From Flammeovirgaceae bacterium (GTDB lineage: Bacteria > Bacteroidota > Bacteroidia > Cytophagales > Flammeovirgaceae), in assembly GCA_965199745.1 (NCBI GenBank), contig CBDATB010000013.1, forward strand, positions 511,438 through 535,437: a stretch of DNA of 24,000 nucleotides. The letters run 5' to 3'. The notes below the pieces were generated by a model that was given only the letters and a program-made list of their open reading frames with translations, was not told the DNA's origin and did no database searches. This document shows positions 1-20,657 of this stretch, piece after piece. Each line of letters starts with the position of its first letter. Position 1 is the stretch's first letter. Made by a program: the position numbers and the translations under genes.

Positions 1-288
1 CAGATACAAGCCTGTGTCGGTGATGCCGCCACCGGGGTAATTTCTGTTGAAAATTTACTGGTCATAGGGGAGTATTTTAATATTTGGCCAAGCGAAGTAT
101 ACCTCGTAGACGTGGAACCAGGCCCCGAAGTAGCTGGCGAACAATGGACATGGGAAGTGCAGCAGTGTATCCCGCATGTAATAACTGTTATTAAAAAATT
201 GGCAACTAACGGTCCGAATGGCGAAATAAAATTGCATTTTCTCAAAGGAAATACTATATTTGACCATATATCTCACATCAATGATTAA
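1..288 (+). CDS. 3' end of a gene entering from upstream; the C-terminal region tentatively resembles a [NiFe]-hydrogenase maturation endopeptidase (HycI/HybD/HupD family)
   Basis: Frame 1 is open from base 1 to TAA at 286-288 (...ISVENLLVIGEYFNIWPSEVYLVDVEPGPEVAGEQWTWEVQQCIPHVITVIKKL...HISHIND*). By eye it aligns with the C-terminal half of the intact endopeptidase at 2152-2652 (PSEVYLVDVEP vs PPKVYILGCQS, each followed by a helix-like segment). Its stop lies 2 nt before the GTG start of the next gene. Confidence 0.45.
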   Translation, partial: QIQACVGDAATGVISVENLLVIGEYFNIWPSEVYLVDVEPGPEVAGEQWTWEVQQCIPHVITVIKKLATNGPNGEIKLHFLKGNTIFDHISHIND

Positions 289-290
289 AA

Positions 291-689
291 GTGGAAACTG
301 TAGAAAAATCAGCTCTTAGATCCCTTTTTTGGAAAGATGAAATACTTCAGGTGCTTTATTGGATGCAGGGTGAAGGCTTGGGAGAACAGGTGTCGATGGT
401 GCAAATTCTTTCATTGCTGAATACTAATGAAGATAATCTTCGGTTTCATTTGAAAAAACTCTCAGTCGATGGTGTACTGATTGCTTCAGACCCGCAAATA
501 GCCGATGACACCCTCATTCGGCTCTCACCGAAAATGTATAAAGAAGCAGGCAAGCGATTTTCCAGTGCGTTTCAGGGTTACCAAAAAACAGGACATGGTG
601 AATGCGGACCTGATTGTGAGTTTTGTTATGATGCAGACGGGCAAAAATTAGACAACTGTGTGCATAACTGTGCTACTGCAAATGAGTGA
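291..689 (+). CDS. Hypothetical small Cys-rich protein (132 aa) with a possible winged-helix-like N-terminal part; family not recognised
   Basis: GTG start tightly coupled to the upstream stop. C-terminal cysteine cluster ECGPDCEFC (C-x3-C-x2-C, Cys codons at 603, 615, 624) plus NCVHNC (C-x3-C, 657 and 669). No competing ORF. Lies on the same strand as the hydrogenase accessory operon. Confidence 0.6.
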   Translation: METVEKSALRSLFWKDEILQVLYWMQGEGLGEQVSMVQILSLLNTNEDNLRFHLKKLSVDGVLIASDPQIADDTLIRLSPKMYKEAGKRFSSAFQGYQKTGHGECGPDCEFCYDADGQKLDNCVHNCATANE

Positions 690-692
690 GTC

Positions 693-1343
693 GTGAAAGA
701 AAAATTATTCAACGATGGTGAATATATTGAAATACTGGCAAAGCTTAATGGACTTATGCGCCAGGTCGAAAATATTTCGCAGGTTGAGCATAAAGTATTA
801 ATTTACAATGTATTACAATATTTTGACTATATGCACCGAGAACCCATTACAAGGATGATGCATAGGATACAAATGGATCCGCAGCTTGAGCGTGACCTGG
901 TGAATGACAAGACGGTACAGAAGCTTTGTGAGCTTTACGATGTCAATATTGAAGCAAGTTTACCTAAAAATGCGGACTCTGCTGAATCTGAAGATGAAGC
1001 ATTTATAACAGCCACCGATATTCCGAAAAAAAAAGACTGGCTTGAATTGGGAAATTTCGATGATTTCGAAAATAAAAAGGTATACCCAAAAAATTACGAA
1101 AAAGTCAACTTCCTCATTTTGAGAATAGGCAAAGAGATATTCGCTGTAAAAAACCAATGTTATGGTTCGGTGTTGCCCATAGACATGGGAAAACTTGAAG
1201 ATCATTTTATTATTTGCCCGTGGCATGGCTGTAAATATGATTTGAAAACAGGACAAGCAGTCAACCAAGTCGGTAAACAACTGGAAATTTATCCAGTAGC
1301 AATAGTAGCCAATGGTTTAGTGAAGATAAAAATAACATATTAA
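693..1343 (+). CDS. HucE/HhyE-like hydrogenase-associated putative Fe-S protein: helical N-terminal domain plus a Rieske-type C-terminal domain with a degenerate first ligand motif
   Basis: GTG start 3 nt after the upstream stop. The C-terminus reads NQCYGSVLPIDMGKLEDHFIICPWHGCKYDLKTGQ. CPWHG matches the second Rieske box (C-x-x-H), and the two Cys are separated by 18 residues as in Rieske domains. The first box is C-Y-G rather than C-x-H. Sits in a hydrogenase operon context. Confidence 0.55.
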   Translation: MKEKLFNDGEYIEILAKLNGLMRQVENISQVEHKVLIYNVLQYFDYMHREPITRMMHRIQMDPQLERDLVNDKTVQKLCELYDVNIEASLPKNADSAESEDEAFITATDIPKKKDWLELGNFDDFENKKVYPKNYEKVNFLILRIGKEIFAVKNQCYGSVLPIDMGKLEDHFIICPWHGCKYDLKTGQAVNQVGKQLEIYPVAIVANGLVKIKITY

Positions 1344-1348
1344 GCTCT

Positions 1349-2155
1349 GTGAGAAGATTATCTGCATTGATTATAGTGTTGTCGATATTACTCGCAGCTT
1401 GTAGTCATAAAAAAGACGTAAGCAAGCATCCGATGGATAATTTGCCACAAAATGAAGCAGGGGAGGTAGTCAGGAAAGCTATTGCCTATGCAGGAGGATG
1501 GAAAAATTGGGATCAAAAAAAGAACTTTACATTTTATAAGAAAATGACTTACCTAGATAGTGCCGGAGTTGTCTCAAAAATAGTGCGGCAGCTACATGAG
1601 TATAATTTGGGTGATCTTTTTCAGGCGAACATGTCGTGGAAAGTAGATGGGGACAATTATCGTGTCATTAACAATGGGTATCAAGCAAAAAAATATTCCG
1701 ATGGGATAGAATTCACAGATCAACAGTCGAGAAATCAAGCGTGGAATTCATCGTTTGGTTCACATTATGTAATTGCCATGCCTTATAAACTGACTGACTC
1801 GGGAGCGACCTTGACCTATGAAGGGATAGATAGTACAGTCATGGGCAAACCTGTTCATGCTGTCAAGGTAACATATGCCGAAGGAATCGGAAGCTCGGGA
1901 GGAATGCACGTATGGTGGTATTATTTCGACAGAGATAATTTTGGTTTGATAGGTAATTTTTTGGACCATGGACACGGATACGTATTGACCACTTATGAGG
2001 GCTTTGAATATGTCGATAAAATCAGAATCCATAACAAAAGGTATTTCTATGAGTCTAATGAAAATAGAGAAAAATTAAGACTTGTAATTATTTATGAAAA
2101 TGAAGCAATGCAGTTTGACCGGGAACTAGATTCGGAAATATTTGAACTCAAGTGA
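1349..2155 (+). CDS. Lipoprotein of unknown function with a LolA-like or lipoprotein-sorting-like fold suspected; paralogue of 2656-3663
   Basis: GTG start. Signal peptide plus lipobox MRRLSALIIVLSILLAAC (Cys codon 1400-1402). Shares AGG..W, MP(Y/F)KLTDSG and C-terminal beta-rich blocks with the ORF at 2656-3663. Overlaps the next gene by 4 nt (GTGA). Confidence 0.7.
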   Translation: MRRLSALIIVLSILLAACSHKKDVSKHPMDNLPQNEAGEVVRKAIAYAGGWKNWDQKKNFTFYKKMTYLDSAGVVSKIVRQLHEYNLGDLFQANMSWKVDGDNYRVINNGYQAKKYSDGIEFTDQQSRNQAWNSSFGSHYVIAMPYKLTDSGATLTYEGIDSTVMGKPVHAVKVTYAEGIGSSGGMHVWWYYFDRDNFGLIGNFLDHGHGYVLTTYEGFEYVDKIRIHNKRYFYESNENREKLRLVIIYENEAMQFDRELDSEIFELK

Positions 2156-2652
2156 GTGGTACTGCAAAAATACTCATAGCCGGAGTAGGTAATGAATTAC
2201 GGCAGGATGACGCGTTCGGTATTGAGTTCGTCAGAAGGTGGAACGATACGGTGACCCACTTCGATAATGTGACGACAATAGAAGTGGGAATAGCCGGTAT
2301 TCATCTGGTACAGGAATTACATACTGGTTACGATGTACTGATTATTGCAGATGCCGTTGATTACCGAAAGAAAGCCGGTCTTATATCGATAGAAAAAGTG
2401 GAAAAGATCAGTAAGGTCGAAACTATGCCTCTGGATCAGAAAAGAGAATTCCTGGCTGATATGCATTATACCAATCCTGTCCGGGCTATGATGCTAGCGC
2501 ATGCGTTGAAAGTATTGCCGCCAAAAGTGTATATTTTAGGGTGTCAATCGAAGTGGCACGACGATTTTAATATAGGTATGAGTGATGAAGTAACCAGTGC
2601 GATACCTATTGCTATAAGTAAACTTATCGAATGGTTAGACAATGTTCAATAA
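2152..2652 (+). CDS. [NiFe]-hydrogenase maturation endopeptidase (HycI/HybD/HupD/HoxM family)
   Basis: N-terminal ILIAGVGNELRQDDAFG matches the G-x-G-N-x4-DD-x-x-G signature. IIADAVD supplies the second acidic ligand region and MHYTNP a candidate His ligand. At 166 aa the size is typical. GTG start overlaps the upstream stop. Confidence 0.85.
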   Translation: MSGTAKILIAGVGNELRQDDAFGIEFVRRWNDTVTHFDNVTTIEVGIAGIHLVQELHTGYDVLIIADAVDYRKKAGLISIEKVEKISKVETMPLDQKREFLADMHYTNPVRAMMLAHALKVLPPKVYILGCQSKWHDDFNIGMSDEVTSAIPIAISKLIEWLDNVQ

Positions 2653-2655
2653 ATA

Positions 2656-3663
2656 ATGATAAATACTATGAAAACTAAAGATCAGGAAACCACCGTACGC
2701 AAGGCTCAATCATCCAAATACATACCCTGGCTTTTTGGCCTTGAGGTTGGAGACCTTGCAAATCCTATTACCATCAGGAGGTTGAGGATTTTGCAAATAG
2801 TCGTGTTGCTGGCAATGCTATCGGGTGCCAGCTATTTACTTTGGGAAAATACATTTCGCGCTCCGACAGGAGCCGAATTGGTCAGTCAAATGGTAACCGC
2901 TGCCGGAGGCATGCAAGCATGGAATCATCTAAAATCGGGACAGTTCACCCGAACGCAGAATGTTTATGATAAGTCCGGAAAACGCCTCTCGCACCATGTC
3001 GAAACATTTTATTTCAGGAAAAATGAAAATGGCATCCAGATCATGGTCAAAGCGATAGACAGACAGGGGAAAGAAGTTGTTATTAGTAAAGACAATGAAG
3101 GATTTTGGGCAACCAAACAAGAAATACCTGCAGATCCAAAAGGTAGCTCTAAAGACCTTGGAATGATGTGTGATTCTGAATTTTGTCAGCCCGATTGTGC
3201 CGCTACAATGGCTTTTTACAGATTCTCTATGCCATTCAAACTCACGGACTCTGGCGTAAATCCCGCTGTCAACAATGTCTCTTCTTTGGGTCTATTAGAC
3301 TGGAATCCATTAGAAAATATGACCATAGAAGGCGATCCGTTGATACTGGATATTTCATTTGATCCTTCCGTAGGACGTGATAAATGGCGATTTATGGTAA
3401 ACCCTGAAACCAGCTTAATCCACAAGATAGAATACTACAATAAATCTGATTTTGGCACCTACAGACCGGAAGAGATATACTGGTCGGATCATAAAACAGT
3501 AAATGGTGTTACTTTCAGCCACCGATGGACGAAATATTGGAGCAATGGTCAGGTGATGGACGAGTATATTTATTCGGATGTATCTTTAAATAATCAGCTT
3601 GACGAAGCTTTTTTTAAAAGACCGGAAAATCTGGATTGGGTGAGTATTAATAACAATCTTTAA
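2656..3663 (+). CDS. Membrane-anchored (N-terminal signal-anchor) paralogue of the 1349-2155 lipoprotein, carrying an inserted C-x4-C-x3-C motif
   Basis: One hydrophobic helix (LRILQIVVLLAMLSGASYLLW) follows a roughly 44-aa polar N-tail. Homology blocks with 1349-2155: TAAGGMQAWN vs AYAGGWKNWD, and FSMPFKLTDSG vs IAMPYKLTDSG. The cysteine motif MCDSEFCQPDC lies at 3169-3198. Confidence 0.7.
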   Translation: MINTMKTKDQETTVRKAQSSKYIPWLFGLEVGDLANPITIRRLRILQIVVLLAMLSGASYLLWENTFRAPTGAELVSQMVTAAGGMQAWNHLKSGQFTRTQNVYDKSGKRLSHHVETFYFRKNENGIQIMVKAIDRQGKEVVISKDNEGFWATKQEIPADPKGSSKDLGMMCDSEFCQPDCAATMAFYRFSMPFKLTDSGVNPAVNNVSSLGLLDWNPLENMTIEGDPLILDISFDPSVGRDKWRFMVNPETSLIHKIEYYNKSDFGTYRPEEIYWSDHKTVNGVTFSHRWTKYWSNGQVMDEYIYSDVSLNNQLDEAFFKRPENLDWVSINNNL

Positions 3664-3675
3664 TATCTTTTTAAG

Positions 3676-4443
3676 ATGAAAATAGCAGTAGTAGGCAAAG
3701 GGGGAGTCGGTAAAACCACTGTCAGCGGAGTCATATGCAGGACTATGGCAAAAGAAGGAAGAAAGGTTTTGGCTATCGATGGCGATCCGAACCCGAATCT
3801 TTCAGCAGTCTTAGGTGTGGATAAAAAACAACCTCCTCAAAAATCGTTAAGCACCGACATCATCGAGCGGGTTCAGGATGGAGAAAGCTGGAGGTTCAGA
3901 GTAAAAATGCCCTTTGATGAAGTACTCCAAACCTACAGCCAAGATGCTAATAATGTGACCTTACTCGTAGTAGGTAAACCCGAAAAAGCCGGTACCGGAT
4001 GCATGTGTGGGTCGCATACAGTGGTGAGAGAGTTAATTCATTCTGCCCTCACTTCAGACTATCAAGCATCGATGGTGGTAGATACTGAGGCTTCACTCGA
4101 ACATATGAAACGGGGTACGTCCAAGTATGTAGAGAAAATGTACACGGTATTAGAACCCTACTATCGGTCGTTGGAAGCAGCGAGTAGATTCGCTGAGATG
4201 GCTAAAGACCTGGGTATACGTGAAGTCGCAGCTATAGGAAACAAAATAAAAACACAGGCAGAGGCAAATGCCATAAGAGAATACTGCGACAAGGAAAAAT
4301 TGCCCATAGCTATGATGGTTCCTTATGATGAAAATATTGCTGCTGCCGATCTCAAAGGAGTATCGATTGTAGATTATAATAGGGATTCCAAAGCCGTAAA
4401 AGTCATTGAAGAGTTTGTAAAGTCATTAAAATCACTCAATTAA
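3676..4443 (+). CDS. CooC-type nickel-insertion ATPase (MinD/ParA-fold P-loop NTPase, CbiA/CooC family)
   Basis: Deviant Walker A MKIAVVGKGGVGKTT. The CooC-type metal motif GTGCMCG has Cys codons at 4000 and 4006. DTEASLEHMKRGT matches the D-x-x-A-G-x-E-H-x-x-R-G block of CooC/AcsF proteins. Length is 255 aa. Confidence 0.8.
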   Translation: MKIAVVGKGGVGKTTVSGVICRTMAKEGRKVLAIDGDPNPNLSAVLGVDKKQPPQKSLSTDIIERVQDGESWRFRVKMPFDEVLQTYSQDANNVTLLVVGKPEKAGTGCMCGSHTVVRELIHSALTSDYQASMVVDTEASLEHMKRGTSKYVEKMYTVLEPYYRSLEAASRFAEMAKDLGIREVAAIGNKIKTQAEANAIREYCDKEKLPIAMMVPYDENIAAADLKGVSIVDYNRDSKAVKVIEEFVKSLKSLN

Positions 4444-4444
4444 A

Positions 4445-4693
4445 ATGTGTCTTGCTATACCGGGAAAAATATTAGCAATAGAAAAAACCGACGACGCTGT
4501 ATTTCAGATTGCTAAGGTTTCTTTTAGTGGTATCACCAAGAAGATTAACCTAGGCCTAGTCCCGGAAGCAAAAATCGGAGATTACGTACTGGTACATGTA
4601 GGAGTAGCCGTGAGTATCATAGATGAAGCTGAAGCAATAAAAACATTCAACTTTCTGCAAGGAACCGGAGAATTGGATGAGCTTTTGGAGTAA
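4445..4693 (+). CDS. hypC: Hydrogenase assembly chaperone HypC/HupF
   Basis: Canonical N-terminus MCLAIPGKI (essential Cys2). At 82 aa the size is typical. ATG starts 1 nt after the upstream stop. Confidence 0.9.
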   Translation: MCLAIPGKILAIEKTDDAVFQIAKVSFSGITKKINLGLVPEAKIGDYVLVHVGVAVSIIDEAEAIKTFNFLQGTGELDELLE

Positions 4694-4722
4694 TTCTATG
4701 CAGGTAATTGAAACCTCACCTT

Positions 4723-5385
4723 TCACCCACTCAATGCGTATGCTCCCCATCTTTGATTTTTTGGGACAAATGGGTTTAAAAGTGATTCTATCAACAAATC
4801 GAACTCCAACCGACCCGTTGGAGTAAAATACGGCAGTATCTGCGTCCATATCATCTCTTTGAAAACCCTTTCTCCACTGGTTAAACTACTCTGGTCTAAA
4901 GGTTTTGTTAAGTAAAATGTAATGATCATCCAGATGGTGTGCGCTATTATTTTGTAGTGATTCGACCTTGGTTCGCTTATCAGGATACCTTTTTTTACAT
5001 TTTGTTTAATCCAGTCATATATTTGACTTGATGTGCGTTCTGAGATTAATATTCTTTTTGAATATTGCTTTGGGTAGTTGCGTTTAATCTCCAATAAATC
5101 AATGAAGAAGAAAGAATATTTGATTAAAATATGGTAATACTTTGCCAGTTGTGTATCAAAGTCTATCAATATTGGAAACTCCTTTTTATCTGTCATAGGA
5201 TAGAGTAAGTCCGCAAGTTGATTTACTATGGATTTTATGATAGCTTCTTTACTACAAAAGTGATAAGCCAGATTTCCTACACTAATATTGGCTTCATCAG
5301 CAATGCTTTGCAGCCTGACATTAACTATTCCGCATTCATTGAATAGTCGGATGCTTTCCGCTATTATTCTTTTTTTAGTATCCAA
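4723..5385 (-). CDS. TetR/AcrR-family transcriptional regulator
   Basis: N-terminal HTH region KKRIIAESIRLFNECGIVNVRLQSIADEANISVGNLAYHF is typical of TetR_N. Length is 220 aa. The start appears to be TTG at 5385-5383, with no in-frame ATG nearby. Convergent with hypC and divergent from hypF. Confidence 0.85.
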   Translation of the reverse strand: MDTKKRIIAESIRLFNECGIVNVRLQSIADEANISVGNLAYHFCSKEAIIKSIVNQLADLLYPMTDKKEFPILIDFDTQLAKYYHILIKYSFFFIDLLEIKRNYPKQYSKRILISERTSSQIYDWIKQNVKKGILISEPRSNHYKIIAHTIWMIITFYLTKPLDQSSLTSGERVFKEMIWTQILPYFTPTGRLEFDLLIESLLNPFVPKNQRWGAYALSG

Positions 5386-5445
5386 ATTAAAAACAAGCGA
5401 TTTAGTAATACCAATAAGTAACCAAACACCCCCGAAAAGTACAAA

Positions 5446-5453
5446 TACATTTG
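5446..5453 (+). promoter_or_regulatory. Bacteroidota-type -7 promoter element (TAnnTTTG) upstream of hypF
   Basis: TACATTTG sits about 78 nt upstream of the hypF ATG. This is a motif match only. Confidence 0.3.
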
Positions 5454-5467
5454 CTTATAAGCAAATG
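5448..5467. promoter_or_regulatory. Perfect 20-bp palindrome CATTTGCTTA|TAAGCAAATG, candidate operator for the adjacent TetR regulator
   Basis: Read directly: the reverse complement of 5458-5467 equals 5448-5457. It lies in the 145-bp divergent intergenic region between the TetR gene (start 5385) and hypF (start 5531). Its left arm overlaps a TAnnTTTG motif. Confidence 0.5.
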
Positions 5468-5475
5468 AAGGAATT

Positions 5476-5495
5476 AAATATGCCACCGCATATTT
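5476..5495. promoter_or_regulatory. Second inverted repeat AAATATGC-cacc-GCATATTT in the TetR/hypF intergenic region
   Basis: 8-bp arms with a 4-nt spacer, read directly. GCATATT is also repeated directly at 5488-5494 and 5497-5503. Confidence 0.3.
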
Positions 5496-5530
5496 TGCAT
5501 ATTAAGAGTTTATTTTAATCTTGAAAACCA

Positions 5531-7786
5531 ATGAAGACATATAAAATACACCTGAGCGGACGCGTACAAGGTGTTGGTTTTCGCCCTTTTATCTATCGTT
5601 TGGCACTTGCTCATCAACTGGTGGGTAGGGTATCAAATGCTGCTTGTGGAGTAGTCATATATGTAAATACAAAAAAACCTGAGGTAGATCTTTTTCTGGA
5701 AGATGTTTTCAAGAAAAAACCTAAAGCATCATTCATTACATCACAATTGATAGAAGAAGTACCGTTTATAAAGTTCGCCGACTTCCAAATTGGTCGCTCA
5801 GAAGCTGCATCTGACATTCACATTCCACTAACACCTGACTTTGCCATTTGCAACGAATGCAAAGCCGACATTTCAAACCCAGAGAACAGGCGTTTTAATT
5901 ATGCCTTCACAACCTGTACACAATGCGGACCTCGCTACGCTATCAGTAAACAATATCCTTTTGAACGACGCCATACATCTGTCTCATCATTTCAGATGTG
6001 TTTATCTTGTGCTAGCGAATACGCTACTCCTTTGGATCGTCGCTTTCATGCCCAAACCATCAGCTGTCAGGCGTGTGGTATGCAATTGCAATTAACAAGT
6101 GTTTCTAAAAAAATACCTGAACCTGAGCAAAGGCAGGTACTGAAAAAAGTTACTGAACTGATAAAAAACGGCCACATCGTTGCTGTCAAAGGTACCAATG
6201 GCTACTTGTTGATTTGCGATGCAAAAAATACTCGTACTATTAACAGACTACGGCAAAAAAAACAACGCCCTCACAAACCTTTTGCCCTACTGTATCCCGC
6301 TATCGAACGGGTTGAAAATGATTTTTATATTTCCGAACGGGAGAAAAATACATTACAATCTGATGTTTCGCCCATAGTCATCTTGCAAAATAACAAAACC
6401 GGGACACTTTCCGAAAATATATCCCCGAATATTAGCCAAACAGGAGTGATGCTACCTTCATCGGCTTTACTTCATATTTTAATGAGTGAACTACAACAAC
6501 CCGTCATAGCAACCAGTGGAAATAGCCATGATTCACCTATTATTTCAAACCCACAAGATGCTGAAAGACACCTCGCTCACATCGCAGACTATTTTTTGCA
6601 TCACAACTTGGAAATCGTTTTTCCACAAGACGACTCACTGGTGAAATTTGCTGGTAACCGACAAATCGTCTTACGTCGTTCAAGGGGTTTAGCTCCTAGC
6701 CATATAAATATTACGGTGGCAAGCAGCCAGGCAATTTTAGCGATGGGTGCTCAACTGAAAAGTACTTTTACTTACATGCTCAACCACCATGTATATACCA
6801 GTCAATATTTCGGAAATTTAGATAATTTCTATGTATTTGAGCGTTATAGAACAACTTTGGAAAACTACTTTAAACTTTTCAAACAGTATCCGCAGACAAT
6901 CCTTACAGACACACATGAGCAATATCAGAGCAGTATTTTCGGAAAGGAATTAGCACAACAATACAATATTCCCGTTGTAAAAATTCAACACCATCAAGCG
7001 CATTTTGCAAGTGTATTGGGTGAACATCAACTTTTTAATCGAAAAGAAAAAATAATCGGTGTTGTATGGGATGGTATGGCTTTGGGAGAAGACGGGCAGC
7101 TGTGGGGAGGTGAGTTTTTTATTTATCATAGCGGTCATATGGCACGATATACTCATTTTGAATATTTTGATTGGATTGCTGGCGACAAAATGTCAAAAGA
7201 ACCCAGGCTCTGTTTATTAAGCCTTTTGAGCGAACAATCTAGGAATCATATCCGATCTAAGTTTACCGAAATCGAATGGAAAAATTATGCTCAACTGCTT
7301 AATAAAAATAAAAGCACACTGAAAACATCATCGGTTGGACGCTTATTTGATGCAGTTGCTTCCTTATTAAATCTGGTTGATTTTAATACTTTTGAAGGGG
7401 AAGCCGGCTTGTTGGTAGAAAACCTTGCCGGCACTTATACCGAAGGCGACTATATCGACTTTCTTTCGGAAGAAAGCTATCAAAAAATCCCTTCCCGTGT
7501 GTTAATACAAAAGATGCTTGACGCCCGGATGGCAGGATGTTCAATTGAACAAATAGCAGCAAGCTTTATTTTTACATTAGTCAGTTGTATTGCCGATATT
7601 GCAAAAAAACAACAGGTCAAAACCGTTGTTTGCTCAGGCGGAATTTTTCAAAATTCAGTAATTATCTCGATGCTATTGAGTGTTTTTCAAAAAATAGGCG
7701 TAGATTTGAAAACAAACCGTAACATGGCTTCAAACGACGAAAACATCTCTTTCGGACAATTAACGCATTACCTTCATACCAAATAA
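5531..7786 (+). CDS. hypF: Carbamoyltransferase HypF
   Basis: N-terminal acylphosphatase domain ([11 protein letters not shown]). Two zinc-finger pairs: CNEC...CTQCGPRY and CLSC...CQACG. These are followed by YrdC-like and Kae1-like regions. Length is 751 aa. Confidence 0.95.
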
Positions 7787-7788
7787 CT

Positions 7789-8886
7789 ATGAAATACCTG
7801 TCGGAATACAGAGACCCAGACCTCGTTAGGCAATATCTTCGGGAAATTACTAAAACAGTTACTCAGCCCTGGTCTGTCATGGAAGTTTGCGGGGGACAAA
7901 CGCATAGCCTGGTTAAAAATGGCATTATTGAAATGCTCCCCAAAGAAATTACCATGATCCACGGACCGGGCTGTCCGGTTTGTGTTACTTCATTAACATT
8001 AATAGACAAAGCTATTTATTTAGCAACTCATCAAAATACGATTCTCTGCTCGTTTGGAGATATGCTGCGAGTACCTGGTTCCAAAAAAAGCTTGCTCGAA
8101 GCCAAAGCAGAGGGAGCAGATGTACGCATTCTGTATTCTCCGCTCGAAGCCGTTAAAATTGCATCGGAAAACACTGATAAGGAAGTGATATTTTTTGCAG
8201 TAGGCTTTGAAACTACTGCCCCTGCCAACGCACTTTCTGTGGTTCATGCCTATAGTAAAGGGTTAAAAAACTACTCTATATTGGCTTCCCATGTGCTAGT
8301 ACCTCCGGCAATGGAAGCAGTGATTGCCGATGAAGAAAGCAAAATAGACGGATTCCTTGCTGCTGGACACGTGTGTACAGTAATGGGAAACTCCGAATAC
8401 TACCCCATCAGTGCAGCATACCGGGTGCCTATTGTGGTAACGGGCTTTGAACCTTTGGACATTTTACAGGGTATTCTCATGGTCGTTCGCCAGTTAGAGC
8501 AAAAGCAAGCAAAAGTAGAAAATCAATATGTGAGAATTGTACGTGATACTGGCAATACAGAGGCGCAAAATATTATCGGCGAGGTATTTGAAGTACAGCA
8601 CCAAACATGGCGTGGAATCGGTGAAATTCCCGATAGCGGCTATGGTATCAAAGCAAAATATGCAGCTTTTGATGCTGGCAAGAAATTTCAGGTAGCCATT
8701 CAGGATGCTTTAGAAAATCCTGAGTGCATTTCCGGACAAATTATGAAAGGAATTAAAAAGCCTCACGAATGTTCACAGTTTGGTAAAAAATGCACACCTA
8801 GTACGCCTGTGGGTGCTCCTATGGTCAGTAGTGAAGGAGCTTGTGCAGCATACTATCATTTTTCAAACTTGCCACAGGCTTTGTAA
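7789..8886 (+). CDS. hypD: Hydrogenase maturation protein HypD
   Basis: [14 protein letters not shown] and GFETT motifs plus a C-terminal Cys-rich Fe-S motif (PECISG...[10 protein letters not shown]...GACAAYY). Length is 365 aa. Confidence 0.95.
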
Positions 8887-8887
8887 A

Positions 8888-9948
8888 ATGACATACGATA
8901 AAAAAATAAGAATCGACCCTCACTGTCCTATGCCAAAACTGGACTTCGATATGATTACCTTGGGGCATGGAAGTGGAGGCGTATTAACTAATAAGCTATT
9001 GGACAGCAGCATTTTCGACCTGTTAAATAATGAAATCCTAAACGAACGCCAAGATAGTGCCTTTTTGAACTTAACGGGAAAAACAGCTTTTTCTACCGAT
9101 AGCTTTTTAGTGTCTCCTGTTTTTTTCCCCGGAGGAGACATCGGAGAACTCGCTATTAACGGCACCGTAAACGATTTGGCGATGTGTGGTGCTTCTCCAA
9201 AGTATATAGCCTTAAGTTTTATCCTTGAAGAAGGATTGAAGATGAGTGAATTTTGGAAAATTCTGGTGTCAATAAAATCAGCTTGTCTTCGATCGGGAGT
9301 GCAAGTTGTAACGGGTGATACGAAAGTAGTTGAAAAAGGGAAAGGAGAAAAAATCTTTATTAATACTTCCGGGCTGGGAACTGTTCATCCAAAATCTTAT
9401 ATTCATCCAAAAACGTAAAAGTTGGTGATAAGATTATTGTAAACGGAAAAATTGCTGCCCATGGGATGGCGATTATGTCTGTACGAGAGGGGCTGGAATT
9501 TGAGTCAGAAATATCGAGTGATACAAATAATCTCAACCATACGGTTATCTCACTTATCGAAAAATTTAAAAAAGATGTTCATTTTCTTACCGACCCCACC
9601 AGGGGTGGAGTAGCTACTGTTTTGAATGAACTTTGCCAAAGTTGCCATTTTGGCATCGAGCTTTTCCAAAGTACAATTCCTATTGATGAACAAGTGGCAA
9701 GTGCCTGTGAGTTGTTGGGACTTGACCCTTTATATGTAGCCAATGAGGGGCTATTTTTAAGTGTTGTACCTCACAAAATTGCCGATCAATATGTAGAAGC
9801 CTTGCAAGAAGATAATAATGGAAAATATGCTAGTATCATCGGTACTGTGGTTAAGCAACATCCGAAACAGGTTATCTTAAAAAGTAAGATAGGGGGTACC
9901 CGAATAGTCTCTATGTTGCCGGGAGAACAGTTGCCTAGGATTTGTTAA
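8888..9948 (+). pseudogene. hypE: HypE (carbamoyl dehydratase), reading frame broken by an apparent 1-nt deletion
   Basis: ATG at 8888 gives MTYDKKIRIDPHCPMP...ITLGHGSGG...FINTSGLG, then a premature TAA at 9416-9418. The -1 frame continues KNVKVGDKIIVNGKIAAHGMAIMSVREGLEFE... to the canonical C-terminus PRIC* at 9948. The shift must lie within 9382-9415, most simply in the A5 run at 9409-9413. 1061 nt plus 1 gives 354 codons. Confidence 0.85.
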
Positions 9949-11921: not shown

Positions 11922-13194
11922 ATGGATGTACTTCTGGGCTTACAATGGGGCGATGAGGGCAAAGGAAAAATAGTAGACTACCTCGCACCGAAATACGATT
12001 TAATTACCCGCTTTCAAGGAGGTCCTAATGCAGGACACACATTGGTATTTAACGGTAAAAAATTTGTCCTCCATCAAATTCCTTCCGGAGTATTTCACCC
12101 TAAAATAAAAAATGTTATCGGTAATGGCGTAGTCCTAGATCCTATAACACTGATGAGAGAAACAGAGATGCTTGCAATGAGTGGGGTGCCTGTTGTGTCT
12201 CGTCTGTATATTTCCAAAAAGGCTCACATCATTATACCGACCCACCGCTTGCTCGATGCCGCCTATGAACAACATAAAGGAGACCACAAAATTGGCTCAA
12301 CGCTAAAAGGTGTTGGTCCTGTATACAGCGATAAAATTGGCCGGCAAGGTTTGGCGTATAGGCGATATGTTACAGGCTGATTTTAAAATTAGATACCAAA
12401 GCCTAAAGGAAAAACACCTGAGAATATTAGGTGGCTATCAGCATCCTTTACATGAACTTGCCGAGCTTGAAAAGACGTTTATGAAAGCTGTTGATTATAT
12501 GAAAAACTTACAGATCGTCGATAGCGAGTATCTCCTATTTCGAGAAATTAAGCAAGAAAAGAATATTCTGGCAGAAGGTGCTCAAGGTAGCTTACTTGAC
12601 GTAGATTTTGGCTCTTATCCTTTTGTTACTAGTTCTAATACTTTTAGCGCTGCTGCTAGTGTAGGGCTAGGTATTCCTCCGCAACAAATAAAAGAAACCT
12701 TCGGTATTTTTAAGGCTTATTGCACTAGAGTAGGCAGCGGTCCATTTCCAACCGAGCTGCACAATGAAATAGGAAAAAAACTACAAGATGCAGGTAGCGA
12801 ATACGGTGCCACTACGGGAAGACCTCGCCGCTGTGGTTGGCTCGATTTGCCTGCACTAAAGTATGCCGTAATGATTAATGGCATCACGCAGCTTTTTATG
12901 ATGAAGGCCGACGTACTCAACCACTTTAAAACTCTCCGTATATGCACTAAATATCGCCTGCTAAACGGAACGCTTACCGATCAACTGCCATACGAGTTGA
13001 CAGATGAAAACATCCAACCGGTTTACCGAGATTTTGAGGGCTGGAATTGTACGCTGAATCAGGTGAAAACTTTTGAAAATTTTCCAACTCAGCTGCTCTG
13101 CTATATTAATTTTATAGAAGAACAAACCGGCGTCCCAATTACCATTCTTTCTACTGGCCCCGATAGAGAACAGACTATTTTTAAATCATCATAA
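11922..13194 (+). pseudogene. purA: Adenylosuccinate synthetase, reading frame broken by an apparent 1-nt insertion
   Basis: The N-terminal part LGLQWGDEGKGKIVD...GPNAGHT runs to ...DKIGRQGL, then terminates out of frame at 12380. The +1 frame continues RIGDMLQADF...GATTGRPRRCGWLD... to 13194. The junction is at TTGGCG (12351-12356). Removing one G restores GRQGLRIGDML. 1273 nt minus 1 gives 424 codons. Confidence 0.9.
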
Positions 13195-13305
13195 ACTACC
13201 GCCAACAAAAGATAAAGGTTATTTATGCTAAAGTTATAGTCCTTCTCAAAATTTTCATAGTTTTACTTCTTAAAAACTATTTATCACTCATAACCCAAAA
13301 ATAAA

Positions 13306-14661
13306 ATGAAAAAAATTACACTCACCGAGCAGGAAATACCTGATAAGTGGTATAATATTATAGCAGACATGCCCAATAAGCCCCTACCTCCTATTAATCC
13401 AGCAACAAAAGAGCCTATCGGACCCGAAGCACTGGCACCGATCTTTCCGATGGAACTTATTAAGCAAGAGGTAAGCACTGAAACGTGGATAGATATTCCC
13501 GATGAGGTAAGACATATTTACAAACTGTGGCGACCTAGCCCTTTATACCGTGCTAGCGGGTTTGAAAAAGCACTGGATACGCAGTGTAAAATATTTTATA
13601 AGTACGAAGGGGTAAGCCCGGCAGGCTCACATAAACCTAATACTGCCGTAGCGCAAGCTTATTACAATAAGCAGCAAAACATCAAACGTATCACTACTGA
13701 AACCGGTGCAGGGCAATGGGGCAGTGCGCTGAGCTTTGCCTGTCAGCATTTCGGTATTGACTTGGAGGTGTATATGGTAAAAATCAGTTTTGAGCAAAAG
13801 CCCTATCGCAAAACAATGATGAATACTTGGGGTGCTCAGGTAGTTGCTTCGCCAAGCAACCGAACGGCAGCAGGAAGAAAAATCTTATCTGAAAACCCGA
13901 ACTCCACTGGTAGCCTGGGCATTGCCATTTCCGAAGCAATGGAAATTGCTGCTACTCACAACGACACTAAGTATTCGCTGGGTAGCGTACTTAACCATGT
14001 TTTATTACACCAAACCGTAGTGGGGCAAGAAGCTTTAAAACAGATGCAAAAGGCTGGCGAAATGCCCGATATAGTGATCGCTCCTTTCGGCGGAGGTTCT
14101 AATTTTGCCGGACTGAGTTTTCCTTTCTTACGTCTCAATCTTACCGAAGGAAAAAATATCCGTTGCATCGCTAGCGAACCTACCTCCTGCCCAAAACTAA
14201 CCCGTGGGCAGTTTCGCTACGACTTTGGCGATACTATTGGTATGACTCCCCTACTACCTATGTATACACTTGGACATAACTTCGTGCCAGCACCCATCCA
14301 CGCCGGTGGCTTGCGCTATCATGGGGCGGGCGTCATTGTCAGTCAATTATTAAAAGACAAAATCATAGAAGCACAAGCTGTCAATCAGCTTGAGGGCTTT
14401 CAAGCAGGCGTAACTTTTGCACGGTCGGAAGGTATCATTCCTGCACCTGAGGCAAATCACGGCATTGCTAGTGCCATTCGGGAAGCCAAGCAAGCCGATG
14501 AAGCCAACAATAGTAAGACTATATTAATCAATTTATGCGGGCATGGCAACTTTGATATGTCGGCTTATGAGGATTATTTCGCAGGAAATTTGACAGAACA
14601 CGAGCTTTCTCAGCAAGAAGTTGAACAGGCACTAAGTGTACTTGATACACCCGTGATTTAG
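13306..14661 (+). CDS. TrpB-like PLP-dependent enzyme (tryptophan synthase beta chain, TrpB2 type)
   Basis: Length of 451 aa with the extended N-terminus typical of TrpB2. PLP-lysine region SPAGSHKPNTA, plus GGGSN and C-terminal GHG blocks. No other trp genes are adjacent. Confidence 0.85.
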   Translation: MKKITLTEQEIPDKWYNIIADMPNKPLPPINPATKEPIGPEALAPIFPMELIKQEVSTETWIDIPDEVRHIYKLWRPSPLYRASGFEKALDTQCKIFYKYEGVSPAGSHKPNTAVAQAYYNKQQNIKRITTETGAGQWGSALSFACQHFGIDLEVYMVKISFEQKPYRKTMMNTWGAQVVASPSNRTAAGRKILSENPNSTGSLGIAISEAMEIAATHNDTKYSLGSVLNHVLLHQTVVGQEALKQMQKAGEMPDIVIAPFGGGSNFAGLSFPFLRLNLTEGKNIRCIASEPTSCPKLTRGQFRYDFGDTIGMTPLLPMYTLGHNFVPAPIHAGGLRYHGAGVIVSQLLKDKIIEAQAVNQLEGFQAGVTFARSEGIIPAPEANHGIASAIREAKQADEANNSKTILINLCGHGNFDMSAYEDYFAGNLTEHELSQQEVEQALSVLDTPVI

Positions 14662-14664
14662 CGT

Positions 14665-15429
14665 TTAAGCAGTACTGGAAAAATGTAATAGCTTCATCTC
14701 TTGCCCATCGAAAACTGCATAGGTTTGCTTGTTAATCCATTCACCGAGGTTAATATAACAGGAATTTTCGTCCACCGGTACGTCCATAGGGATGTGCCGG
14801 TGACCGAAAATGTAAAAATCGTGGTGCGACTTTTTCTGGGTTTTTTTGGCAAATTGCCATATCCATTCGTTTTCCCCATAGTAAATCTCAGGTTTTTTTA
14901 AATGCTTATGCCAGCTATGTGCTGCCCAAGTAGTGGCAATGCTCATGCCGACAGAAGGATGCAAAAAAGCAAAAAGACGCTGGCATATTTTGTTCCTAAA
15001 TATCTTTTTCAGTATTTTGTAGTGGCAATCTCCTGGACCTAATCCATCGCCGTGTGCCACCATTATTTTTTTATCGTTAATAATAAACACTTGAGGTTTT
15101 CTAAAAATAGATATACCGAGTTCTTCGGTAAAATAGTCGAACATCCACATATCGTGATTGCCAGTAAAAAAAATAACCTTTACTCCCCTATCCACCAGTT
15201 CAGCTAATTTTCCTTGAAAACGGATAAAGCCTTTAGGAATAACCATTTTGTATTCGAACCAGAAATCAAAAATATCACCCACTAGAAAAAGGTAAGCAGC
15301 ATCTTCTTTCAGTTGATCCAGCCAACAGACAATGATTCGTTCCCTTTCTTTTTGAGTGGCTTTTGCTCCTCCCAGATGAAAATCGGAAGCGAAATATACT
15401 TTTTTACGCAAGGGTAGTGTTATTTTCAT
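14665..15429 (-). CDS. lpxH: UDP-2,3-diacylglucosamine diphosphatase (LpxH-type metallophosphoesterase)
   Basis: Calcineurin-like motifs are present: SDFHLG, GDIFDFWFEY, GNHDMW, HGD and GHRH. I prefer the ATG at 15429 over the TTG at 15432 used by the ORF track. Confidence 0.8.
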   Translation of the reverse strand: MKITLPLRKKVYFASDFHLGGAKATQKERERIIVCWLDQLKEDAAYLFLVGDIFDFWFEYKMVIPKGFIRFQGKLAELVDRGVKVIFFTGNHDMWMFDYFTEELGISIFRKPQVFIINDKKIMVAHGDGLGPGDCHYKILKKIFRNKICQRLFAFLHPSVGMSIATTWAAHSWHKHLKKPEIYYGENEWIWQFAKKTQKKSHHDFYIFGHRHIPMDVPVDENSCYINLGEWINKQTYAVFDGQEMKLLHFSSTA

Positions 15430-15465
15430 CAAGCTTTTATCTGTAAAATCTTTCTATTTTTATAC

Positions 15466-16494: not shown

Positions 16495-16524
16495 GGCGTT
16501 AGTTATATTTATTATGAAAAAATA

Positions 16525-20549: not shown

Positions 20550-20657
20550 GTTTGCAAAAAATTGATTGTTTTAAGCTCGATTCACAGAATTGCTCTGTTT
20601 TGTAGTTGGGATTATCAAAAAAGTAAAAAAAATAGAACTACGACAAGAGAAATAAAA

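Follow-up and report, generated by a model that had tools for sequence, protein, structure and literature searches.

Accessory and maturation genes of a group 1l [NiFe]-hydrogenase (hyl) cluster in a Bacteroidota bacterium

Here we analysed a 24 kb stretch of DNA (the window). Sequence comparisons place its bases 1-9948 in a group 1l [NiFe]-hydrogenase (hyl) cluster of a Bacteroidota bacterium, of which they form the half that holds the accessory and maturation genes; just upstream, beyond the window, we predict the start of the first gene and, before it, hylL, five hylTM genes and hylS. The assignment to group 1l is made because the gene order matches that of 80 genomes, including the published cluster of Hymenobacter roseosalivarius. 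We consider, with moderate confidence, that the whole is best explained as this half of the cluster together with the seven-step working that we propose below. The cluster type, which encodes a hydrogen-oxidising enzyme, is already known, being published and biochemically uncharacterised, and its extra ORFs were earlier unlabelled or labelled by Pfam only. Ortiz et al. had seen the accessory ORFs: their neighbourhood figure gives the labels CbiA and PadR and pools the rest as 'HUO' (bioRxiv 10.1101/2020.08.06.239558). What appears to be new here is a putative protease paralogue (X188), a Cys-rich winged-helix protein (CysWH), a CooC-type ATPase with a CXC motif, a predicted exported pair of LolA-fold DUF6503 proteins and a candidate selenocysteine.

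Identity and gene order of the locus

Eight forward-strand genes form a packed block: X188 (1-288, open at the left edge), CysWH (291-689), HylE (693-1343), D6503a (1349-2155), a maturation endopeptidase (2152-2652), D6503b (2656-3663), the CooC-type ATPase (3676-4443) and hypC (4445-4693). The spacers between them are 2, 3, 5, 3, 12 and 1 nt, with one overlap of 4 nt, and the block is followed on the same strand by hypF (5531-7786), hypD (7789-8886) and hypE (8888-9948). A preliminary description of this DNA had listed these genes as tightly packed, and all of them were found, with spacers of 1-12 nt besides the overlap. Its order of the block and then hypF, hypD and hypE also held, although it had missed a minus-strand TetR gene between hypC and hypF, and the hypE gene that it reported is present but not as an intact single frame, being split by a one-base homopolymer indel. 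Pfam and NCBIfam profile searches of the 24 kb window agreed with it in detecting no hypA, hypB or structural subunit genes.

With a profile of the Cys-rich protein we identified relatives in 369 genomes and fetched the 80 best loci, all of them from Bacteroidota; the synteny counts use only those loci with enough flank for the gene in question. Where the flank allows, the Cys-rich gene is preceded by HylS (48/49), five small membrane ORFs, HylL (57/58) and the endopeptidase paralogue (74/74), and downstream of it stand the Rieske protein (76/77), DUF6503a (62/69), the endopeptidase (64/66) and DUF6503b (51/59), with CooC found in 40 of the 42 evaluable loci and HypC in 36 of 42. This synteny was decisive for the earlier suggestion that the region is the downstream half of a hydrogenase operon, the structural genes being upstream in nearly all of the fetched loci with enough flank. 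The unassigned genes, whose conserved linkage the preliminary description had proposed to check, are linked to hydrogenase genes across the same loci, and the group 1l with extra ORFs that it mentioned does exist, though it is reported from nine phyla and not from Bacteroidota alone. The roles that it had suggested for these genes (nickel delivery, electron relay, membrane tethering) are plausible, and more specific forms of them are proposed below.

Among the 80 loci is that of H. roseosalivarius DSM 11622, the published group 1l reference, where the order after hylL is the same (endopeptidase paralogue, Cys-rich wHTH protein, HylE, DUF6503, HupD, DUF6503-like) and hypC, hypF and hypD are nearby, as in the window. 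The orthologues are, however, only 30-57 % identical to the window proteins, and whereas the block in the window continues directly with the CooC-type ATPase and hypC on the same strand, the 20 kb fetched from H. roseosalivarius, whose enzyme is reported active, contain no CooC-type gene.

The CooC-type ATPase and nickel insertion

The P-loop ATPase encoded at 3676-4443, of the CbiA family in Pfam, carries a CXC motif (GTGCMCGSH), and its Walker A motif (GKGGVGKT) is deviant. Among solved structures it comes closest to CooC1 of Carboxydothermus hydrogenoformans (PDB 3kje), the ATPase that inserts nickel into CO dehydrogenase, and it matches this protein over the full length (residues 1-231; E 7e-32) with the CXC motifs aligned; length, deviant Walker A and position of the CXC are the same in both, and we infer that the window protein is a true CooC relative. 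The setting differs from that of CooC1, since no CO dehydrogenase gene is nearby and the ATPase gene stands instead with a [NiFe]-hydrogenase and beside hypC or hypF; adjacency to hypC on the same strand was counted in 35 of 44 loci. The same gene occurs in the 1l-type clusters of Armatimonadota and of a lineage of 66-70 % GC, and these clusters have no hypA or hypB either; in one of them it directly precedes hypF-C-D-E. Some relatives also depart from CooC1 in the CXC itself: in those of high GC an in-frame TGA stands in place of the first Cys codon, with a covarying hairpin after it, which makes this residue a candidate selenocysteine. From the TGA and the hairpin in these lineages we argue that the first Cys of the motif would be functionally critical.

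A review describes CooC as an ATPase that inserts nickel and resembles HypB in structure. As the second step of the proposed working, the CooC-type ATPase would insert nickel through its CXC site, replacing HypB, and on balance we find this probable. Clustering all unassigned ORFs of the 80 loci, at about 20 kb per locus, yielded no hypA or hypB family. A SIMIBI-class ATPase other than the G3E GTPase HypB is known to serve nickel insertion into [NiFe]-hydrogenase in Thermococcales, where an ATPase-type HypB of the Mrp/MinD family works with HypA. The window ATPase would be comparable to it in this respect; no HypA was seen in the hyl cluster, and to our knowledge the CXC motif of CooC has not been reported from the Thermococcales protein.

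Alternatively, HypA and HypB encoded elsewhere in the genome may insert the nickel, and the ATPase would then be an auxiliary, perhaps carrying Fe-S clusters to HylS or HylE in the manner of Mrp/NBP35, or a helper needed only under nickel scarcity. Weak ParA/NUBPL and MrpORP/ApbC matches through the P-loop would fit such a role, and so would the lack of the gene in the 20 kb fetched around the H. roseosalivarius cluster. A CbiA-type ATPase is also found beside a group 1h cluster, with hypB genes listed for group 1h in the same table. The absence of hypA and hypB, moreover, covers about 20 kb around each locus, and the genes may lie elsewhere in the genome. The Mrp/ApbC matches, however, span only the first 55 residues or so, whereas the similarity to CooC1 is full-length, lies about 20 orders of magnitude above that to any other solved P-loop protein and includes alignment of the nickel-binding CXC. 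In addition, the gene consistently adjoins hypC or hypF in three lineages, none of which has hypA or hypB in the cluster. We judge this alternative as a whole rather unlikely.

HylE and the DUF6503 pair

The HylE orthologue (693-1343) has an N-terminal helical domain and a C-terminal Rieske-fold domain (Pfam Rieske, E 2e-9), and is 30.6 % identical to the HylE of H. roseosalivarius (E 1e-34). The preliminary description had taken it for a HucE/HhyE-like Rieske-type protein, which is correct for the Rieske domain; Pfam finds no NifU domain, however, and the His ligand of the first loop, kept in the Hymenobacter protein, is missing. The ligand set is non-canonical, with one Cys in loop 1 and CPWHGC in loop 2; among 55 orthologues CPWHGC is present in 52 and the loop-1 His in one.

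As the preliminary description stated, HucE and HhyE are tied to uptake hydrogenases, and their deletion abolishes H2 oxidation in Mycobacterium smegmatis (groups 2a and 1h; PMC6883350). Both they and HylE are putative Fe-S proteins whose genes share an operon with the structural subunits of an aerobic uptake hydrogenase lacking a cytochrome b subunit, and HylE shares its Rieske-type C-terminal domain with HucE. In contrast to them, HylE has neither a NifU-like domain nor a CxxC in its N-terminal half, and its ligand pattern is C...CPWHGC as against CxH...CxxC/H; the 1l clusters outside Bacteroidota retain NifU plus Rieske. By analogy with HucE and HhyE, HylE could plausibly relay electrons or aid assembly, the fifth step of our scheme. 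The Rieske ligand set is incomplete in 54 of the 55 orthologues, which weighs against this step.

The two exported LolA-like paralogues of the preliminary description were recovered as such from the DUF6503 match, the profile-profile comparison and the predicted fold. D6503a (1349-2155) is a DUF6503 lipoprotein of LolA-superfamily fold (27.9 bits in Pfam, cut-off 22.9) with an invariant Cys18, the lipobox Cys, after a signal-like N-terminus. Its AF2 model (pLDDT 92.9) matched DUF1329, P. gingivalis LolA3, LolA-like proteins, RseB, LolA, LolB and LppX in Foldseek (E 6e-8 to 1e-3; probability 1.0, TM-scores 0.5-0.66), with which it shares a predicted open beta-barrel with a helical plug. Sequence identity to this superfamily is nevertheless about 10 %, the DUF6503 genes are dedicated to the hydrogenase operon with no Lol genes nearby, and one paralogue is anchored by a TM helix and carries a Cys triad. 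This is D6503b (2656-3663), which falls just below the Pfam cut-off and aligns with the D6503a family in hhalign (99.3 %, E 1.7e-20). Its N-terminus carries a conserved cytoplasmic motif and is followed by a single TM helix, whose hydrophobic segment comes after RR(I/L)R, and by a periplasmic LolA-like domain with an invariant C-x4-C-x3-C insertion, the Cys triad being present in 53/53 orthologues.

Of the 40 loci that could be evaluated, 28 encode an orthologous TonB-dependent receptor, in one or the other of two arrangements, and ten loci have DUF6503 with no receptor nearby. In the high-GC lineage DUF6503 is followed directly by a convergent TonB-dependent receptor, which resembles those of Bacteroidota in the plug domain only. 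The Armatimonadota 1l clusters have neither DUF6503 nor the receptor, with SBP_bac_5 and permease genes instead, and DUF6503 genes are also missing from some Chitinophagales loci; therefore the pair would not be essential to the enzyme. As a sixth step, we tentatively suggest that it might serve the envelope side, nickel acquisition with the TonB-dependent receptor being the likeliest form of this. The LolA fold usually binds hydrophobic ligands and not metal ions, which weighs against a nickel role.

The pair might instead be envelope-side partners of the enzyme itself, capping or stabilising the HylTM tubes from the periplasmic side or handling a hydrophobic ligand such as menaquinone or a lipid, with no part in metal uptake. 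HylTM1-5 have been modelled as membrane tubes (AlphaFold3, 2026), and the strongly conserved juxtamembrane motif on the cytoplasmic side of D6503b would, with its TM helix, suit contact with a membrane complex. The acyl chains or other hydrophobic ligands typical of the fold, the way these genes are interspersed among the structural and maturation genes of a single compact operon, and the ten loci in which no receptor is near point the same way. Against this, HylTM is present in the Armatimonadota and some Chitinophagales clusters from which DUF6503 is absent, and in the high-GC lineage DUF6503 is next to the receptor, at the distal end of the hyp operon and away from the structural genes. Like nickel acquisition, such a partnership is a possibility that we hold doubtful.

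Endopeptidases, CysWH and the Hyp genes

The gene at 2152-2652 encodes a regular member of the HybD/HycI family, a canonical [NiFe]-hydrogenase maturation endopeptidase of HupD/HycI type (PF01750, E 2e-15; TIGR00072, 94.6 bits, cut-off 47.45), with the motifs GNELRQDDAFG, DAV and ADMHYTNP intact. In all loci the C-terminus of HylL reads DPCMPCTTH and then continues for a tail of 22 aa finishing in REVTTCACG(I/L/V)E, its end carrying an invariant CxC in the relatives. Given the established function of the family and the tail seen in relatives, the endopeptidase would very likely cut off these 22 residues after DPCMPCTTH (third step).

The partial endopeptidase-like gene noticed earlier at the left edge proved to be the C-terminus of a divergent paralogue, X188, of which the window holds the last 95 of about 188 codons (1-288). 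In relatives the gene is immediately 3' of hylL; in one of them (locus L001) it encodes 188 aa, and the window fragment is 68 % identical to it. The X188 family aligns with HycI proteases in hhalign (93.5 %, E 2e-7, 160 columns), the sole PDB match of its profile is the hydrogenase 2 maturation peptidase (5ttx, E 0.002), and a homologous domain in P0414 clears TIGR00072 (61.7 bits, cut-off 47.45). X188 thus shares a fold-level sequence profile with the HybD/HycI family, yet its acidic and His ligand positions are replaced (GNxLxxDD by GYHxLxNHS, DAV by AIE, the His motif by GDAATGVIS), and it has an invariant motif of its own, IQACVGDAATGVISVENLL. It appears to be a maturation-protease paralogue without the canonical metal ligands.

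CysWH (291-689) is an acidic protein of 132 aa (median pI 5.1) with no match in Pfam or NCBIfam. Its AF2 model comprises a confident wHTH at 8-78, a helix at 80-101 and a low-confidence Cys tail with the motif HGECGPDCEFC...CVHNC, in which H102, C105, C109, C112, C123, H125 and C127 are invariant (alignment A1). Fusion proteins of other phyla join this domain to an endopeptidase or X188 domain (HycI+CysWH, X188+CysWH), and X188+HycI fusions occur there as well; in the window the X188 and CysWH genes are 2 nt apart. Because of these fusions and this adjacency we propose that X188 and CysWH act as a pair on the HylL C-terminus, where they may well serve, without catalysis, as a chaperone or in metal handling (fourth step). 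CysWH could otherwise be a PadR/MarR-like transcription factor controlling the hyl operon, its Cys/His tail sensing metal or redox: Foldseek returned only MarR/ArsR/SarA-type folds (best E 4e-3), JGI calls some homologues 'PadR family transcriptional regulator', and PadR is among the labels of Ortiz et al. None of the PadR or MarR models in Pfam gives a match, however, even at E 0.1, the wHTH part alone is acidic (median pI 4.7), fusion to maturation endopeptidase domains in several lineages would be odd for a DNA binder, and the gene is in mid-operon, 2-3 nt from its neighbours, so that we regard a regulator as improbable.

HypC begins MCLAIPG (PF01455, E 2e-25; TIGR00074, 81 bits), and the HypF carbamoyltransferase and HypD score 661 bits (TIGR00143) and 496 bits (TIGR00075). 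With HypE they would, as the first step and almost certainly, assemble the Fe(CN)2CO group and insert it, this being established Hyp function with the genes present. HypE reads in two frames, the AIRS N-domain in 8888-9418 and TIGR02124 positions 174-332 in 9466-9948; one A added to the A5 run at 9409-9413 gives a 353-aa protein ending PRIC that matches TIGR02124 over its full length (422 bits). The split is probably an assembly error, because the housekeeping gene purA in the same window carries a similar one-base homopolymer indel. That the two frames mark a pseudogene in a decaying locus, whose accessory set no longer works in its host, is very improbable, since the defect is a single base missing from a homopolymer, purA has a similar one-base indel, and all other genes are intact and conserved.

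The TetR-family gene (4723-5385, minus strand; TetR_N plus a TetR C-terminal domain) is convergent with hypC and divergent from hypF, and has an orthologue in 27 of 30 fully covered loci. Between it and hypF is a perfect 20-nt palindrome, CATTTGCTTATAAGCAAATG (5448-5467), a candidate TetR operator. It is present a single time in the window, against an expectation of 0 from shuffles, and its sequence is not conserved in the other loci. The TetR protein could perhaps regulate hypFDE locally through it, a seventh step that we put forward with some reserve. Taken together, the extra genes of this cluster point to a nickel-insertion route that may bypass the textbook HypA and HypB.

Gene order and probable group 1l identity of the locus

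The first 4693 bases of the window, whose GC content is about 39 %, carry eight open reading frames (ORFs) on the plus strand, separated by spacers of 1-12 nt and in one case overlapping by 4 nt, and these are followed by a TetR gene on the minus strand (4723-5385) and then by hypF, hypD and hypE on the plus strand. Profile searches identified a maturation endopeptidase of the HycI/HupD type (2152-2652, plus strand; PF01750, 57 bits against a cut-off of 23; TIGR00072, 94.6 bits against a cut-off of 47.45), HypC (4445-4693, plus strand), HypF (661 bits) and HypD (496 bits), and together with the ORF map they confirmed the preliminary description of a hydrogenase maturation locus with extra genes. 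As had also been claimed, neither hypA nor hypB was found in the window, and no nickel transporter was found there either. The remainder of the window holds housekeeping genes (ribF, purA, a PLP enzyme, a two-component system, a PPIase, S21 and others), and Rfam and tRNA scans returned no RNA families or tRNAs in the window.

The Cys-rich protein encoded at 291-689 yielded 476 homologues, the nearest named ones being those of Cyclobacteriaceae and Cecembia. In Cyclobacteriaceae bacterium YHN15 HylS is followed by five ORFs of 91-104 aa and then by HylL, after which come a 188-aa ORF, the genes for the Cys-rich and Rieske proteins, a 267-aa ORF and HycI; a 332-aa ORF, CbiA and HypC complete this series, and TetR genes, hypE, hypD and hypF lie beyond it in the opposite orientation. 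A profile scan over one genome per species found relatives of the Cys-rich protein in 369 genomes, and the best 80 loci, all from Bacteroidota except one from a MAG labelled Bdellovibrio, were analysed with tblastn and ORF tables. The same gene order was found wherever the flanks sufficed. Counting loci with the gene over evaluable loci, we obtained 74/74 for the 188-aa ORF, 57/58 for HylL, 48/49 for HylS, 76/77 for the Rieske protein, 62/69 and 51/59 for the two DUF6503 proteins (DUF6503a and DUF6503b), 64/66 for the endopeptidase, 40/42 for a CooC-type ATPase in the locus and 36/42 for HypC, and the linkage of the extra genes to hydrogenase genes is by these counts conserved across relatives. 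Two further features lie outside the window, namely a set of five short ORFs for single-pass membrane proteins that separates hylS from hylL in 52-55 of the 53-57 syntenic loci whose upstream DNA is long enough to tell, and hylL itself, whose product in syntenic relatives is 72-100 % identical to that of YHN15 (73 % for the Hymenobacter roseosalivarius reference).

Among the 80 loci is that of H. roseosalivarius DSM 11622, a published group 1l example, and the interleaved ORFs downstream of its hylL pair one for one with those of the window. The proposal that the window holds the downstream half of a hydrogenase operon is supported by this shared order across the 80 loci, and because the order is conserved, H. 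roseosalivarius included, the evidence supports reading the locus as a further member of the published cluster type, whose extra genes carry no assigned roles. In the supplement of Ortiz et al. (bioRxiv 10.1101/2020.08.06.239558) the labels CbiA and PadR are in use and the remainder is pooled as 'HUO', and a 2026 paper still calls the group 1l enzyme uncharacterised, accessory and maturation genes being absent from its discussion. The cluster type is already known; what is new here is the proposed roles for its accessory genes.

Profile and structure searches of the genes that the preliminary description had left unassigned recovered CooC, the DUF6503/LolA fold and a Rieske protein, and gave no curated family for the Cys-rich protein. 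The Rieske protein (693-1343, 216 aa) is an orthologue of H. roseosalivarius HylE (E = 1e-34) and has the Rieske fold. A NifU-like domain is present in HucE/HhyE and in the HylE of Armatimonadota, whereas in the HylE of the window we found no NifU match and no CxxC in residues 1-115. The Rieske signature CxH...CxxH/C is incomplete, the loop-1 His occurring in 1 of 55 orthologues (that of H. roseosalivarius; the window has C-Y-G) and the loop-2 sequence CPWHGC being kept in 52 of 55. The cluster of HylE, if any, would be ligated by three Cys and one His. A function as electron relay would be an analogy, drawn from mycobacterial genetics only.

Exported DUF6503 proteins and the TonB-dependent receptor

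The two DUF6503 proteins, D6503a (1349-2155) and D6503b (2656-3663), are paralogues. D6503a scores above the Pfam DUF6503 cut-off (27.9 bits against 22.9), has an invariant lipobox Cys, and was modelled with high confidence in a fold of the LolA superfamily, for which Foldseek searches of the PDB returned DUF1329, LolA3, LolA, LolB and RseB (E-values from 6e-8 to 1e-3). D6503b, at 20.1 bits below the cut-off, was assigned to the LolA fold via profile homology and has a conserved cytoplasmic motif, one transmembrane helix and an invariant C-x4-C-x3-C insertion. At its N-terminus (window 2656-2800) the sequence IPWxFGLEVKDLxxPITIRRIR stands before the single transmembrane helix. The conserved motif suggests that D6503b contacts a partner in the cytoplasm or the membrane. 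Both DUF6503 proteins are predicted to be exported, and the enzyme is placed on the cytoplasmic side because HylS is without a Tat signal. No lol genes were found in the loci, and a literature search returned no paper that mentions DUF6503.

Beyond these genes, a TonB-dependent receptor was the sole conserved neighbour, encoded in 28 of the 40 loci that could be evaluated. In the Bacteroidota loci it is either divergent from hylS (as in L001:2531-4672, minus strand) or located between TetR and hypE (L026-L041, near 14800), and in a high-GC lineage DUF6503 is followed directly by a convergent receptor gene (L086:15566-17388; L090:8622-10844) whose product is like the Bacteroidota receptor in the plug domain only. 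DUF6503 is absent from some Chitinophagales loci and from Armatimonadota clusters, which instead carry on both sides SBP_bac_5 and two permease genes of a Nik/Opp-like ABC transporter (L083:414-3981 and 13281-16709; L085:937-4354 and 13220-16105). Clusters of the Armatimonadota type also have a DUF6390 gene after hypC, and neither this gene nor the ABC genes were seen in Bacteroidota loci.

Because the exported proteins occur with a conserved TonB-dependent receptor as neighbour, we suggest with low confidence that DUF6503 and the receptor may form an envelope module, whose function would most likely be nickel acquisition. That the DUF6503 pair has instead a structural role, or one concerned with lipid or quinone, is a serious rival explanation to nickel acquisition.

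A proposed route of nickel insertion and the C-terminus of the large subunit

The ATPase encoded at 3676-4443 resembles CooC1 (3kje) over its full length (E = 7e-32), with the deviant Walker A and the CXC motifs both aligned. The Walker A sequence GKGGVGKT, at residues 7-14, is kept in 54 orthologues, GTGCMCGSH is aligned with GSQCYCREN of 3kje, and C-M/L-C is found in 52 of the 57 family members counted. According to a review, CooC acts in nickel insertion into CO dehydrogenase and is close in structure to HypB. Whereas the CooC family is associated with Ni-CO dehydrogenase or acetyl-CoA synthase, the ATPase of the window neighbours hyp and hyl genes; no genes for CO dehydrogenase or acetyl-CoA synthase were found in the window or among the conserved neighbours of the 80 loci, and in 35 of 44 loci the ATPase gene adjoins hypC on the same strand. 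When every unassigned ORF from the 80 loci was clustered, no hypA or hypB family was obtained. The gene is also present in Armatimonadota clusters, and in the high-GC lineage it stands directly before hypF-hypC-hypD-SIS-hypE, in both cases without hypA or hypB in the cluster. Because of its likeness to CooC1, its adjacency to hypC, the absence of CO dehydrogenase genes and the absence of hypA and hypB from the loci, we favour, on these sequence grounds, a role in which the ATPase would insert nickel in place of HypB. In H. roseosalivarius no CooC-type gene was found within 20 kb of the cluster, the sole match to the ATPase in a plasmid collection was an acetogen CooC, and our literature search returned no paper that links a CooC-like protein to the maturation of hydrogenases.

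In L083-L086 the gene of the ATPase looks split into two ORFs that are one frame cut by TGA at the first Cys of CXC; where the window has GTG-C-MCG, these loci read HAGxG-TGA-MCR. Scanning metagenome contigs for this pattern supplied 19 further cases, each with about 144 codons of open frame past the TGA, and the in-frame TGA was recorded in a total of 22 instances in high-GC 1l-type clusters (L083:4846-4848; L085:4830-4832; L086:8945-8947; L087-L105); every instance with enough flank lies among hydrogenase genes. Within the 60 nt that follow the TGA there is a hairpin with its loop, CGUGC, at +24 to +28, and its pairing was scored on 17 distinct sequences. Pairing was found in 79 % of cells, compared with 10-42 % when the partners were slid, and the observed covariation was reached by 0 of 500 shuffles: one pair occurs as U-A (10), G-C (6) and C-G (1) and is never unpaired, another as C-G, U-A and U-G, and substitutions that exchange one amino acid for another (Ser, Arg or Gly) keep the pairing. 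The minimum free energy of these 60 nt is no better than that of shuffles, the genes being GC-rich, and the hairpin is supported by its covariation. The hairpin looks like a bacterial SECIS element, and its covariation after the TGA makes the ATPase of these clusters a candidate selenocysteine-X-Cys form; the position of the TGA at the first Cys would in turn point to the CXC site being important in the Cys form of the window. No selenocysteine CooC was reported in the literature searched, and if true this ATPase would be a new selenoprotein family.

Bases 1-288 (95 codons) are the end of a gene for 188 aa which in relatives either overlaps hylL or adjoins it directly. Neither this fragment nor a full-length Bacteroidota orthologue gave a direct match in Pfam or NCBIfam, and the family is tied to maturation endopeptidases because hhalign aligned it with the HycI endopeptidase family (93.5 %, E = 2e-7, 160 columns), because the sole match in a PDB profile search was the hydrogenase maturation peptidase 5ttx (E = 0.002), and because a homologous Armatimonadota domain (P0414) passes TIGR00072, proteins of that type being publicly annotated as 'hydrogenase maturation protease'. 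The metal-ligand triad of HybD-type enzymes, which we take from the E. coli HybD structure to be Glu/Asp, Asp and His, is absent from this paralogue, the aligned positions having His or Leu, a non-acidic residue and no His. The family has its own invariant motif, IQACVGDAATGVISVENLL.

The gene of the Cys-rich protein begins 2 nt after that of the paralogue. In the structural model of its product a winged helix is predicted with confidence and is followed by a long helix; the tail, which bears the invariant HGECGPDCEFC...CVHNC, is poorly modelled. PDB sequence-profile searches with the family gave insignificant matches only, and no relative was found in the plasmid collection. The winged-helix fold was recovered in a structure search, where the matches were MarR/ArsR-type regulators with weak E-values, and the protein might accordingly be a transcription factor of the PadR/MarR winged-helix type; however, it has no match in Pfam or NCBIfam and its winged-helix part is acidic (median pI 4.7), and we rank this explanation lower than a role in maturation. 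The maturation reading draws on a profile search of 1.84 billion representatives, which gave 211 relatives of the Cys-rich protein. About 10 of the best 150 are fusions of 274-342 aa with the Cys-rich domain at the C-terminus and, N-terminal to it, canonical HycI in some and the 188-aa type in others. Such a fusion lies directly after HylL in Armatimonadota 1l-type clusters, and in the high-GC lineage, at 66-70 % GC, the 188-aa type is fused to HycI instead (fusions in other phyla, comprising paralogue with Cys-rich winged helix, HycI with Cys-rich winged helix and paralogue with HycI: P0277, P0306, P0319, P0321, P0332, P0338, P0461; L083:10001-10897; L086:6348-7388). HylL (L001:7561-9435; orthologues in L003-L082) has a 22-residue extension past DPCMPCTTH with the invariant end REVTTCACG(I/L/V)E. 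The HylL precursor thus has a CxC motif at its extreme C-terminus. The natural fusions, the 2-nt spacing and the CxC-ended tail of HylL support a model in which paralogue and Cys-rich protein would act jointly on the C-terminus of the large subunit during maturation.

Placing these elements into one scheme is tentative, and we consider it rather doubtful as a whole. In such a scheme group 1l maturation would follow a HypA/HypB-free nickel route, in which the CooC-type ATPase (Sec-X-Cys in some phyla), a catalytically dead endopeptidase paralogue and the winged-helix Cys/His protein (fused to the paralogue in some phyla) would load HylL via its CxC-ended tail, the TonB-dependent receptor and the LolA-fold DUF6503 proteins supplying nickel in Gram-negative hosts.

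Interrupted frames, other neighbours and significance

The hypE gene is split over two frames, the break being a run of five A at 9409-9413 where six are expected, and the addition of one A restores a 353-aa HypE with a PRIC end that scores 422 bits across the whole TIGR02124 model. A similar one-base indel, an extra G at about 12348, interrupts purA (11922-13194), and its repair gives a full-length protein. Because the indel is of the same kind in both genes, the breaks are read as probable long-read assembly errors rather than decay, and pseudogenisation of hypE was rejected. On the minus strand (17322-19106) lies a 594-aa ORF in which two PPIase (rotamase) stretches were reported, the best beginning at residue 2, and a 102-aa ORF is found just upstream (19270-19578); the 594-aa ORF may be N-terminally truncated by a further indel. 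The intergenic region of hypF and the divergently oriented TetR gene contains a candidate operator, the perfect 20-nt palindrome CATTTGCTTATAAGCAAATG (5448-5467), whose sequence is not conserved in 82 other loci. In the high-GC lineage a SIS-domain protein is encoded between hypD and hypE (L086:13069-13650; L090:5995-6573; L102; L104), and SIS is among the neighbours listed by Ortiz et al. (bioRxiv 10.1101/2020.08.06.239558). The window has a SIS gene of its own (20562-21473), which lies at a distance from the cluster and is probably unrelated.

Group 1l hydrogenases have been reported as the dominant H2-oxidising enzymes of Antarctic soils and as common in the ocean. The value of the present cluster would lie in its accessory genes, the unlabelled 1l ORFs being now described specifically enough for testing: the CooC-type ATPase as a possible stand-in for HypB, the pairing of the endopeptidase paralogue with the Cys/His winged-helix protein, which is backed by natural gene fusions, and the LolA-fold proteins with the TonB-dependent receptor as a putative envelope module. 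Should the proposed nickel route be true, it would represent a second bacterial solution to the assembly of the [NiFe] site, and it would aid the heterologous production of O2-tolerant, high-affinity enzymes.
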